Assembly (NCBI RefSeq): GCF_988242995.1
Contig: NZ_OZ547044.1
From: a plasmid
DNA: 64,000 nt
Strand: one strand, 5' to 3'
Below, one piece after another: positions 28,201 through 31,200 of this stretch. The stretch's first letter is position 1. Every line of letters begins with the position of its first letter. A program made the position numbers.

Positions 28201-31200
28201 TCTTATGGCATCCTGTAACGCGCGCTGTTGGTAATGTTAAGAATCAGGGACCAGAGCTCATCGAGGCTGTTGGCTTATGAGATGTCGGAGGCTGATCCGT
28301 GTTTTAAAGCTAATGTACGCATACATTAGCTTTAAAATTAGCCGTGCATCGTAACTAATTTCAATCATCAATATGGACAGCTATCACGACAGGGAGATTT
28401 TAAAAGCTTCAGACTTATGCATTAAAAGCAGCGCAAGTCTAATAAGTAATTATCATATTGAATATATAATTCATTTTTACAATTTATTATTGTTAGGCAG
28501 TAAAATTTAATTGTTGAATTTACCTATAAATAAAGATATTAATAAAATGTCTCCATTTTCAATAAAGGAACTTATCATGAGCTGGTTTAATGACGTATTT
28601 GGATTCGAAGAATCAGACTATGCAGAGACTCAGGCTCGTTTTTTCCAGGAAGGCCCTTTTCTTCATACCAGAAGCCAGCCATCTGTTTCTTATCGTTCTG
28701 GTATTCTGACCATGCCGAGTCTGGCCGAATTAAGGAAAGCGGTCAGCAATCTTGTGACAGAACCGTATGGAAGGTGCAGATTTGACATACTTGAGGCTGA
28801 TGCATATGACCTCCACCGAAAATCCGAAGTGAAGGGCGCGCTGATCCAGGTTGCCAGTCAGTTCAACTTACTCGAAATGCCATGTGAATATACAACGCCA
28901 GAAAAGGGGATTACCGATTACCAGTTTGATCATACTCAAGGACCTGCCTGCGCTATGGCCTGTGCTGCTGCCACAGTATTTCGTAATTATCTTGTCCCGA
29001 TGGGGTCACAGACTGGACAATCCACTACCAGCCAGCTTAACACGCTGGCTGATATGGAAAAGGCTATCGGCATTGATGGCATACGAATGAAAAACGGGTA
29101 TGCCCTGATGTCGGCTAATACGGTGCAGGCTATTAGCCGTTATATTGCATCGCTGGATGAGCAAATGCGGGACAGGCTCAGACAGGAGTTACGCATCGGA
29201 TTGCACTCAGATACTGAAGTCACTATACCAGGAGTACCTGAAGATCAGTTTGTGTCTCAGGCTCTCTGCTCTGCCTTACCTGTCGCGTATAACTCATCTC
29301 CCCGGGAAGAATGGGCTCCTTTTGCATCGCTGGTACTGGAAGCCAGTTACGAAGCAACGTTGCTGGCAGGTGTTCTGAACTACCGGCTTACAGGCAATCC
29401 GAGAGTATATGTGACTATGGTCGGAGGCGGAGCATTTGGTAATGAACCTGGCTGGATAATTTCTGCTCTCAGGCGTGCCTTATATCTGGTCAGCCATCAT
29501 AATCTGGAGGTGATGTTTGTAAGCTACCGACATACTCCTGCAGCTTTATATTCATTAATTGAGGAATTTTGACCGATACAGTTTGTCATTCTAAATAAGA
29601 ACAACATATAATGAATTCGACAGCATTTAATTAAGGAGTGATTTATGAATGGGTATATCGTCACAATCATTATCGCATTCATTTTCGGTCCCATTCTGGC
29701 GTTACCGGTAATGTTCTTAGGTTTGTTTAATATAATGGATTTTGCGCTGTATTCATTCCCCATATTTTTCTTTTGTATTATGGGGTACAGGCAAGATAAG
29801 AAGGTTAAGGATGCTTTTAAGGGATTAATACCGGGCCTAATTGTATCTCTGATTATGACGACTTTAGTTCTTTTTGTTAAAGATCAGAGCGACTGTACGA
29901 ATAAATATGATACAGGTAGTCTGTCTGCTGCTGTGTGTGAGAGACTTAAGGGACCAGGATTTAGATAACGGAAGCCTTTACGGTGGCGCAGCTCGTCACG
30001 GAACGCGTCAGCCTGCTCTATGCCCGGCAGATGGTTTTGATTCAATGCGTGATCATGTGGTCATAGTCACCGCCATTGCAGCGGCGCCGAGAGACGTCGT
30101 TTATCAGTCTGTGTCGTGAGTTGAGTCCTGATCGCAGAAGTTCAGACCGCCCAGACTTTTGAGTTGTCTTAAGTCACTGAGATAGTCCTTCCCGGGCACT
30201 CCCATTTTTAGACACGCCGGACATCTTAACTTAGCCATAGGCAGATAATACAACTTTGCTGCCACAGCATTGGTGCGCTTAATGCGTTTTATGTTAAATA
30301 TCAAATACTTACTTCGTTAGCGTGACATAAGTTGATGTGTTTGTCGTGTCGTGACAGCACAATCAGGGATGTCATCCCCTAACGAGGCAAGGACTAAGTT
30401 AATGAACAGAACAGCTCAAGAAGTACAGACTTGCTGGCTTGAGAGCCGGCAGCCTGAAGATCGTACCGGTAATGAAGCGGAAAAATTTTCGGATGAATGC
30501 TGGAAGAACGGTCTGCGGCTGGATAAAAGCCCGTCTGTGCACTATCAACTTCTGATGGAAACCATCCGCAGGACGCTGATCCCGCGGCCAAAGTGAAGGC
30601 CTCCGTCGGTCTCCACTATTATCGCTACCGGGTTAGCCGTCAGGCATGGCCCGGTTTAAAAAGATATGCTGACAGTTCTGCTGCAGTTATATCAAAATCG
30701 AGTTGCTGGATTAATTCTGCCAGTTTTTTCTCTGCAGTATCACGATCAAACTGATTTTGTACTATCTGGAGAGCAACCTGTTTTAGCTCCGGAGGGAGGT
30801 GTTCCAGATTGATATGATTATAACCCGAAATGTCATCATCCGAATTTTCGAAGAGCCAGCCGTAACTCATAAGGTCACCTGTTCTATTTCACAAATTTCC
30901 AGACACCTGGCGGTACCCGGTCATACAACTTTCCCATCGTCATCTCCGCCAGCCGGTGATCAACCGCGGCATTGAAATGCTCAAGCTCATCATCTGACAG
31001 AGAATATTGATTTTTTTCTATTATCCTTTCCAGGGTTTCCTTTGATGTACAGCGCCTTAGTCGAAAAATCCATTCCTGTTTCGTCATTAGTTTTATTTAT
31101 CCTGAGGTATCCCGGTAATATCATTCTGGAAGATGCTTTTCTTTCAGTCGGTTATGAGTGAACCATTTTGCATATGTGATGTAAACCACAAAAGTTAAGA

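Follow-up and report, generated by a model that had tools for sequence, protein, structure and literature searches.

Introduction

Bacterial PARGs have been reported to strip ADP-ribose from the 2'-OH of RNA and from 5'-phosphate ends and to protect cells from the RhsP2 toxin (Lu et al., PMC11833690), and orphan antitoxin-like macrodomain copies can neutralise DarT-type toxins (PMC11825919). On computational grounds, Iyer, Burroughs, Anantharaman and Aravind (2022; PMC9503650) predicted a further set of 'ARG-centric' systems that would counter foreign ADP-ribosylation, in which stand-alone ADP-ribose erasers are coupled to rhodanese-phosphatase, HD, TY-chaperone and WYL components. Here we describe a 331-residue protein encoded by open reading frame (ORF) A on a 64,000-nt segment of a Klebsiella IncF-type multiresistance plasmid (assembly GCF_988242995.1, contig NZ_OZ547044.1; hereafter the window), which we place with high confidence, in fold and in family, among the PARG-like macrodomains. 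A preliminary description of this DNA had singled out 28281-30350 as an AT-rich island, left the larger of its two proteins unassigned to any family, and proposed that it forms a toxin/immunity or abortive-infection module with a small membrane protein, ORF B. Both co-oriented genes are present on the plus strand (331 and 107 aa), and AlphaFold and Foldseek do place ORF A; the joint module finds little support in what follows.

Fold and motifs of ORF A

The ORF A start is the ATG at 28577, which has AAGGAA 8 nt upstream, and its homologues all begin M-x-W-F. The gene and its motifs lie as follows:

28577..29572, plus strand: ORF A, 331 aa, PARG-like macrodomain protein (WP_019725651)
28847..28876, plus strand: motif Q91-V-A-S-Q-F-N97-L-L-E100, invariant columns in two family alignments
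28928..28954, plus strand: motif D118-x-T-Q-G-P-x-C-A126
29267..29281, plus strand: motif C231-S-A-L-P235, putative counterpart of PARG 'C-A-A-P', the two being placed together in a low-confidence extended hhalign alignment
29423..29443, plus strand: Gly-rich loop G283-G-G-A-F-G-N289, matching the PARG GCGAFxN loop

Searches of ORF A and ORF B against Pfam, NCBIfam, PADLOC, PHROGs and the PDB (phmmer and profile) gave no annotation, and an accession-based literature search returned no publication on the ORF A protein. A single-sequence match to OAS3 in the PDB (E 0.66) and a Pfam match to MucBP (E 0.49) were rejected as noise. The family placement comes from an AlphaFold2 model of ORF A built from a 29-sequence alignment, with a predicted local distance difference test score (pLDDT) of 94 and a predicted template modelling score (pTM) of 0.93. 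When this model was compared with the PDB by Foldseek the top matches were bacterial-type PARGs (D. radiodurans and T. curvata, E 1.6e-5), followed by a long list of macrodomains. It displays the three-layer alpha/beta/alpha macro fold and, as in the macrodomain superfamily, has a Gly-rich loop after the penultimate core strand; in macrodomains and PARGs this is the loop that binds the diphosphate. The GGGAFGN loop, already noted in the preliminary description, is the functionally telling motif, and G283-G284-G285, F287 and N289 are invariant across the family alignment. The 'Rx6H'-like stretch RALYLVSHH noted along with it is not a motif: R300, A301 and L302 are conserved, and both His residues vary.

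Alignment of 29 homologues (47-69% identity) gave approximately 60 invariant columns, and N97, E100, D118, Q121, R136 and Y138 are still invariant in 32 divergent multidomain members, a pattern that suggests an enzyme with a conserved substrate. Other invariant family motifs are PE-G, RNY, NGY and an N-terminal W-F-x4-G-F-x-E. Judging from the order of secondary-structure elements in the model, QVASQFNLLE would stand where macrodomains have their 'NAAN'/'NFAN' strand and loop, and D-x-TQGP-x-CA where PARG has its catalytic loop and helix start ('QEE-x-LC').

Comparison with PARGs, other macrodomains and known ADP-ribose erasers

The bacterial PARGs (PF10021/TIGR02452; T. curvata, D. radiodurans) are the closest solved fold to ORF A. 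The two are of comparable size, and both run from a C-(S/A)-A-(L)-P strand through a long helix to a G-(G/C)-G-A-F-x-N loop. In one genome, a Lysobacterales metagenome-assembled genome (locus L033), they are also neighbours, and from this genuine PARG gene we seeded a PF10021 alignment for profile comparison. Aligned by hhalign, the family and PF10021 profiles matched over 33 columns (E 0.0037), in the C-terminal region alone, pairing 'VYLTlvGGGaFGN..WI..AirRAL' with PARG 'LVLGAWGCGAFxNDP......FRxAL', and from this pairing the GGGAFGN loop of ORF A appears to correspond to the PARG GCGAFxN loop. The family profile gave no signal in hhalign against a single PARG sequence, and forced long alignments are unreliable in the N-terminal half, such that catalytic equivalences are not assignable from them.

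Motifs counted by regular expression in 269 family members and 120 PF10021 proteins separate the two groups:

G[GC]G[AV]F.N: family 247/269; PF10021 112/120
C[SA]A(L)P: family 181/269; PF10021 109/120
GGG-X6-8-QEE (PARG catalytic signature): family 0/269; PF10021 118/120
ASQFN (as [AS]SQFN in the family): family 256/269; PF10021 0/120
TQGP: family 266/269; PF10021 0/120

ORF A is therefore PARG-like, yet it falls outside the PARGs both by hidden Markov model (HMM) match, of which there is none, and by catalytic signature. Its identity to them is only ~10-13%, its family has invariant motifs of its own, and it adds an insert of ~65 residues (~140-205) and an N-terminal segment of ~65 residues. 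The PARG-type and ORF A-type macrodomains co-occur in the L033 genome, where the PARG gene (7031-7639) lies directly downstream of the family member; its 202-aa product ends before the diphosphate loop and may be truncated.

A second group for comparison is that of the MacroD-type, Af1521 and viral macrodomains (PF01661), which are mono-ADP-ribosyl and O-acetyl-ADP-ribose hydrolases. ORF A has no PF01661 match and is twice their size, and whereas hMacroD2 (PMC12421852) carries the strand motif and Gly loop within one segment, VAFPCISTGIYGFP, ORF A has a long helix between them. One of the long family members carries a canonical Macro domain as a separate fused unit, which implies that the two kinds of domain are not redundant.

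With regard to the ARG-centric systems, relatives of ORF A resemble them in part, lying near rhodanese-phosphatase/DSP-PTPase, HD_4, TY-chaperone, WYL and NUDIX genes and having no adjacent ADP-ribosyltransferase. However, the core enzyme of those systems is an ARH/ARG-fold glycohydrolase rather than a PARG-like macrodomain, and the Klebsiella plasmid ORF A has none of these partners. The phosphatase-associated ARPP family of the same study, with its invariant Cys and Gln, was considered as a match and dropped, as a duplicated beta-meander plus barrel is not a macro fold. ORF A also recalls the DarG-type antitoxins and the orphan erasers of phages and plasmids, which are likewise macrodomain-fold ADP-ribose erasers on mobile elements; in contrast to DarTG, neither of its neighbours (a truncated SRAP gene and ORF B) contains an ADP-ribosyltransferase domain. 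By analogy, the protection that PARGs give against RhsP2 would provide a concrete precedent for an orphan protective eraser (PMC11833690).

Distribution of the ORF A family

In a collection clustered at 90% identity, 7984 of 8000 scored candidates passed E<=1e-3, and at 50% identity the family comprises 3225 matching clusters, 769 of them below 1e-30. At least 566 relatives were present among the matches listed from a collection of 100,044 species (first 600 pattern matches). Relatives sharing 42-61% identity were found in the alpha-, beta-, gamma- and delta-proteobacteria, Planctomycetota, Verrucomicrobia, Chloroflexi, Cyanobacteria, Spirochaetes, Acidobacteria, Bacteroidetes and Riflebacteria, ORF A itself being 42-50% identical to members from other phyla and 30-39% identical to those of protists. 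Structural matches in AFDB50 with TM >0.9 extend to dinoflagellates, diatoms, oomycetes, Perkinsus, a cryptophyte, a red alga and the choanoflagellate Salpingoeca, where the entries are named only 'Macro domain-containing' or 'Uncharacterized'. Most copies in the family are single chromosomal genes.

The exact ORF A protein occurs on at least 1000 sequenced contigs, and at >=95% identity it is found on 272 PLSDB plasmids, mostly conjugative and of Klebsiella IncF type. IncF plasmids of E. coli, Shigella and Salmonella carry homologues of 62-68% identity, located between traX and the PLD-nuclease/repA region. Neither Pfam nor PADLOC matches the genes 5' of the homologue in the E. coli IncF setting; on the E. 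coli IncFII plasmid pLAO102 (locus L095, 3529-4894) they form a set of three overlapping, stop/start-coupled genes of 117, 236 and 102 aa between traX and the macrodomain gene, and might work together with the macrodomain on plasmids of this lineage.

Genomic neighbours and domain fusions

To survey gene neighbourhoods, ORFs within 4 kb were clustered in 84 non-redundant loci; the Pfam scan covered ORFs within 250 nt, WYL and NUDIX genes being found otherwise. The one clearly recurrent neighbour is a DSP-PTPase (~190 aa, HCxGGxGRxG), encoded directly 5' of the family gene and in the same orientation in 14/84 loci, with a median of 22 nt between the two. Domains of the same phosphatase (Pfam PTP-SAK, Tc-R-P, PTP-NADK) are also fused to the macrodomain in 8/32 of the long multidomain representatives scanned, a figure that does not give a family-wide frequency because these representatives were chosen for length. 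SIR2 genes were found at 4 loci, with a SIR2 hit in 3/69 immediate downstream ORFs, and WYL transcription factors lie within 4 kb at 5/84 loci. Encountered once each within 250 nt were an ARH (ADP-ribosylglycohydrolase), the PF10021 PARG, a KptA/Tpt1 RNA 2'-phosphotransferase, Fic, an Xre-MbcA/ParS antitoxin domain and a TY-chaperone, the last with HD_4 one gene further up.

Nearly all of the informative neighbours belong to the NAD/ADP-ribose network, and the links to phosphatase and KptA may point to a form of ADP-ribose that is phosphorylated or ribose-linked. Coupling of the ARG-centric type is absent from the window; among relatives it is present in part, at the DSP-PTPase and WYL loci and at the single locus with TY-chaperone and HD_4.

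A homologue of 66% identity in Scandinavium sp. (locus L003) is cargo of a chromosomal integrase/AlpA/primase/DUF927 island. It adjoins a convergent gene for a 476-aa NUDIX protein (weak PADLOC match to PDC-S07, E 2.5e-4) and lies beside a type I restriction S subunit, a setting that resembles a defence island.

Proposed function of ORF A

On balance we think it probable that ORF A is a stand-alone ADP-ribose-binding macrodomain protein, a sister to the PARGs that is most likely hydrolytic and is carried by the plasmid as cargo. The invariant GGGAFGN loop would bind the diphosphate of the ADP-ribose moiety, and the 'ASQFN' loop after the central strand, probably together with Asp75, would contact the adenine. 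ORF A would cleave ADP-ribose conjugates or derivatives at the bond of the distal ribose, with the invariant E100, E109, D118 and Q121 as candidate catalytic residues replacing the Glu-Glu pair of PARG. The genomic partners suggest that the substrate may be a phosphorylated or ribose-linked form of ADP-ribose, or else nucleic acid or protein that has been ADP-ribosylated. Acting alone as an 'eraser' or clean-up enzyme, ORF A might most plausibly shield the host cell or the plasmid from ADP-ribosylating toxins or defences; its role on the plasmid might alternatively be to remove an ADP-ribose-derived metabolite, and both are possible. A role for ORF A in inter-genomic conflict, as the preliminary description had suggested, is possible.

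Several observations weigh against this reading. The Pfam scan of ORF A gave no Macro (PF01661) or PARG_cat_microb hit even at E<=10, NCBIfam yielded nothing relevant, and the PF10021 profile match is weak (E 0.0037, probability ~9-11%) and confined to the C-terminal third. The catalytic QEE of PARG is found in 0/269 members, so that hydrolysis is not guaranteed and a binder or sensor is possible, and the residue roles proposed above are inferred. Approximately 70% of family loci have no informative neighbour, and in the window no ADP-ribosyltransferase, sirtuin or phosphatase adjoins ORF A. With respect to plasmid biology, no relatives were found in 50,697 phage records, the one annotated record examined, that of plasmid p203, places ORF A outside the plasmid leading region, and the gene has repeatedly been lost from plasmids; these last three points together weaken an anti-defence role.

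The alternative that survives best, which we regard as unlikely though credible, is a housekeeping-type metabolite clean-up enzyme that hitch-hikes on plasmids and stands outside genetic conflict. Its substrates could be O-acetyl-ADP-ribose from sirtuins, or ADP-ribose-1''-phosphate or 1'',2''-cyclic phosphate from KptA/Tpt1 reactions, and the sirtuin, KptA/Tpt1 and phosphatase partners fit such a role. The very high conservation across phyla and protists, unlike that of fast-evolving defence genes, the predominance of single chromosomal copies, the absence from phage records and the dispensability of ORF A on plasmids all argue in the same direction. However, the distribution is patchy (at least 566 pattern matches encoding a relative in a collection of 100,044 species), and recruitment onto enterobacterial conjugative plasmids has occurred in two genomic contexts and involved no fewer than two divergent lineages (>=90% and 60-80% identity). 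The gene is also carried on integrative islands beside type I restriction-modification, NUDIX, or HD_4 plus TY-chaperone genes, and some neighbours are of conflict type (Fic, Xre-MbcA/ParS, WYL).

A bolder version of the proposal, which we hold to be distinctly unlikely, is that ORF A is the first plasmid-borne member of a new class of ADP-ribose hydrolases, one that has a PARG-like fold, works without the Glu-Glu pair and serves on conjugative plasmids and islands as an orphan eraser with an anti-defence or immunity function. Its targets would be DNA, RNA or protein bearing ADP-ribose put there by the defences of a host or by toxins of competitors (DarT-, CmdT-, RhsP2- or Tre-type), or else immune signals with ribose-ribose linkages, such as 2'cADPR or 3'cADPR. 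If this were true, the plasmids of very many clinical Klebsiella isolates would carry an anti-defence or immunity enzyme.

We consider it very unlikely that ORF A is a catalytically inactive binder of ADP-ribose or a related nucleotide, which as a sensor, sponge or 'reader' would sequester a signal. The loss of the PARG QEE in all 269 members is what such a protein might be expected to show. Set against this, the invariant N97, E100, E109, D118, T120 and Q121 cluster in the loop region before the helices that follow the central strand, a polar and acidic cluster that exceeds the usual needs of binding, and the frequent pairing with phosphatases suggests a reaction sequence.

Placement among the macrodomains turns a 'hypothetical' protein common on clinical Klebsiella plasmids into a candidate enzyme, and exposes an uncharacterised family of >3000 clusters in bacteria and protists. 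A PARG-like fold that lacks the PARG catalytic residues implies one of two things: hydrolysis of ADP-ribose by a new chemistry or with a new specificity, or else a new class of ADP-ribose reader. Should ORF A erase ADP-ribosylation imposed by defences or competitor toxins, it would be an addition to the short list of enzymatic anti-defence and immunity functions of plasmids. Given the size of the family, the missing catalytic residues and its frequency on clinical Klebsiella plasmids we rate the finding as being of moderate interest.

ORF B and its independence from ORF A

The gene immediately downstream, its promoter-like site and the natural deletions of ORF A are located as follows:

29645..29968, plus strand: ORF B, 107 aa, small membrane protein (WP_019725650), AAGGAG upstream
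29583..29612, plus strand: sigma-70-like promoter TTGTCA-18-TATAAT, 11/12, in the 72-nt spacer between ORF A and ORF B
28358..29532, no strand: segment missing in natural deletion variants, nearly all of ORF A (L088 joins 28357 to 29533)
~28373-29548: second ORF A deletion (L094 joins ~28372 to 29549)

Hydropathy analysis of ORF B bears out the three membrane segments first ascribed to it (hydrophobic residues ~5-27, 30-47 and 59-79); residues 48-58 form a Lys-rich loop, and the C-terminal tail contains two Cys. Library scans gave no family match. ORF B is represented by only 42 clusters of the 90%-clustered collection, every named one coming from Klebsiella or related enterics, and its 107-codon length is conserved across variants.

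Some features of the locus are what one would look for in a conflict module, that is, an abortive-infection, toxin-immunity or effector pair made up of the soluble ORF A and the membrane protein ORF B. The two genes lie side by side in the same orientation on DNA of low GC; SRAP, ORF A and ORF B recur as a set on several backbones of Klebsiella plasmids, at ~96-97% identity; and the flanks in related plasmids form a variable cargo spot. Their co-occurrence is nevertheless not conserved. The strong promoter-like site at 29583-29612 is likely to drive ORF B independently. ORF B is present in 572 PLSDB records against ~274 with the Klebsiella-type ORF A, so that about half of its plasmids are without ORF A. 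In L088-L090 the gene order is SRAP and then ORF B, window positions 28358-29532 being missing; both deletion variants keep a 3' remnant of ORF A (its last ~24-40 nt) together with the spacer and ORF B, and in L088 the spacer has TATAAT intact and TTGCCA replacing TTGTCA. The retention of ORF A 3' remnants and the different breakpoints show these to be two independent deletions and not empty insertion sites.

The same independence is seen from the side of ORF A. No small membrane partner was seen in the surveyed loci and neighbouring ORFs of a family of >3000 clusters; the 62-68% identical IncF homologues of E. coli, Shigella and Salmonella are without ORF B, and at the chromosomal-island loci the neighbours differ. 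No PADLOC family matched ORF A, ORF B or SRAP, and, to our knowledge, every characterised member of the macrodomain superfamily binds or removes ADP-ribose and none is a toxin. With the distribution of ORF B, its own promoter-like site and its persistence through two ORF A deletions, a toxin-immunity dependency is hard to reconcile in either direction, and the conflict module, largely refuted by distribution, is in our view hardly credible. ORF B, a small inner-membrane protein whose gene is probably transcribed on its own, shares the locus and is not a partner of ORF A, which removes a false lead. The preliminary description had itself set homology to a known enzyme family and a wide distribution over unrelated backbones against its proposal, and this is largely what we found.

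In loci L093, L094 and L091 the region just downstream of IncFII(K) repA resembles a variable cargo hot spot, carrying varying sets of DUF4268, SRAP, the macrodomain gene, ORF B, DUF2971, a serine hydrolase, DUF4238 and Tn3. In addition, the last 35 nt of ORF A (29538-29572) recur with 94% identity at L091 6073-6107, ~50 nt 5' of the DUF4238 gene of this related plasmid contig, and could be the remnant of another deleted ORF A copy or mark a recombination hot spot.

Plasmid setting, base composition and flanking genes

The 2.07 kb of 28281-30350 matched 771 PLSDB records, of which 706 are from Klebsiella and 584 are conjugative, and the upstream 25 kb of the window matches records with annotated Tn4401-family and IS26 elements. 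In p203, where WP_019725651 and WP_019725650 are both labelled 'hypothetical protein', ORF A and ORF B are flanked on one side by an IS26-bounded resistance region that includes the SRAP gene, and on the other by small backbone genes (including an Hha-domain gene) and then the pco/sil cluster. A leading-region anti-defence island was rejected on this ground, the p203 locus lying between the IS26 resistance region and pco/sil and those of related plasmids beside IncFII repA.

The foreign look of this DNA, low in G+C content (GC) and in a mobile context, is borne out by its composition: 28281-30350 has a GC of 0.431 against 0.542 for the whole window, within the lowest 2% of 2070-bp windows. The description of it as an AT-rich island applies unevenly to its parts. 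The long leaders are indeed AT-rich, with a GC of 0.29 both in the ORF A leader (28281-28576) and in the spacer, and ORF B is at 0.373, but the ORF A body is only mildly low at 0.479 (0.44 at third codon positions, GC3). The AT-richness is mainly that of the non-coding leaders and ORF B, with ORF A mildly under the plasmid average. Both genes are under purifying selection, the ratio of nonsynonymous to synonymous substitution rates (dN/dS) being 0.27 for ORF A; for ORF B it is 0.27-0.43 at the three larger divergences and 0.56 against the closest variant, the last value resting on only 9 differences.

Upstream of ORF A lie the following features:

27630..28280, plus strand: 5'-truncated SRAP (YedK-like) gene (NCBIfam PRK09951, 9e-132), context outside the module
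28281..28576, plus strand: AT-rich leader of ORF A
28302..28337, no strand: perfect AT-rich inverted repeat of 16 bp with a 4-nt loop, 100% complementary, 22 nt past the SRAP stop

Promoter-like sequences had been ascribed to both leaders, which stands for the spacer; in the ORF A leader the sigma-70-like site at 28519-28548 is weak (9/12) and in a promoter scan did not exceed the shuffle expectation. An RNA element in the AT-rich leaders was considered and dropped, as an Rfam scan of them gave no match. The inverted repeat looks like a terminator hairpin, and a further copy of the palindrome lies at L092 2878-2908, ~70 nt 5' of the start of SRAP homology; it may be a repeated terminator-like or repetitive extragenic palindromic (REP)-like element flanking the SRAP gene. 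A repeat-flanked cassette was also considered and dropped, the repeats being weak and the overlap at the deletion junctions at most 2-11 nt.

The SRAP copy of the window begins MTREEY, whereas the full-length copy in L091 begins MCGRFSQSMTREEY. Homology to intact copies begins at 27622; the copy lacks the first 8 codons (MCGRFSQS), among them that for Cys2, the catalytic residue of SRAP proteins, for which reason the window copy is probably inactive. Public records annotate it as an ordinary 216-aa protein. A linkage between SRAP and the macrodomain was rejected, as their association is limited to Klebsiella plasmids and the window SRAP is truncated. Just 5' of it are a resolvase fragment (27188-27583) and IS26 (26425-27147).

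On the other side, 3' of ORF B, a run of small genes mostly on the minus strand extends over 30351-32875 and is also present in a matching plasmid record. It includes:

30884-31087: Hha-domain gene
31121-31492: hydrophobic 123-aa ORF

Three further ORFs of this run, of 164, 190 and 82 aa, belong to no known family, and the 190-aa ORF (32058-32630) lies inside a sharp GC spike, reaching 0.70 at 32200-32599, that is unlike its surroundings.

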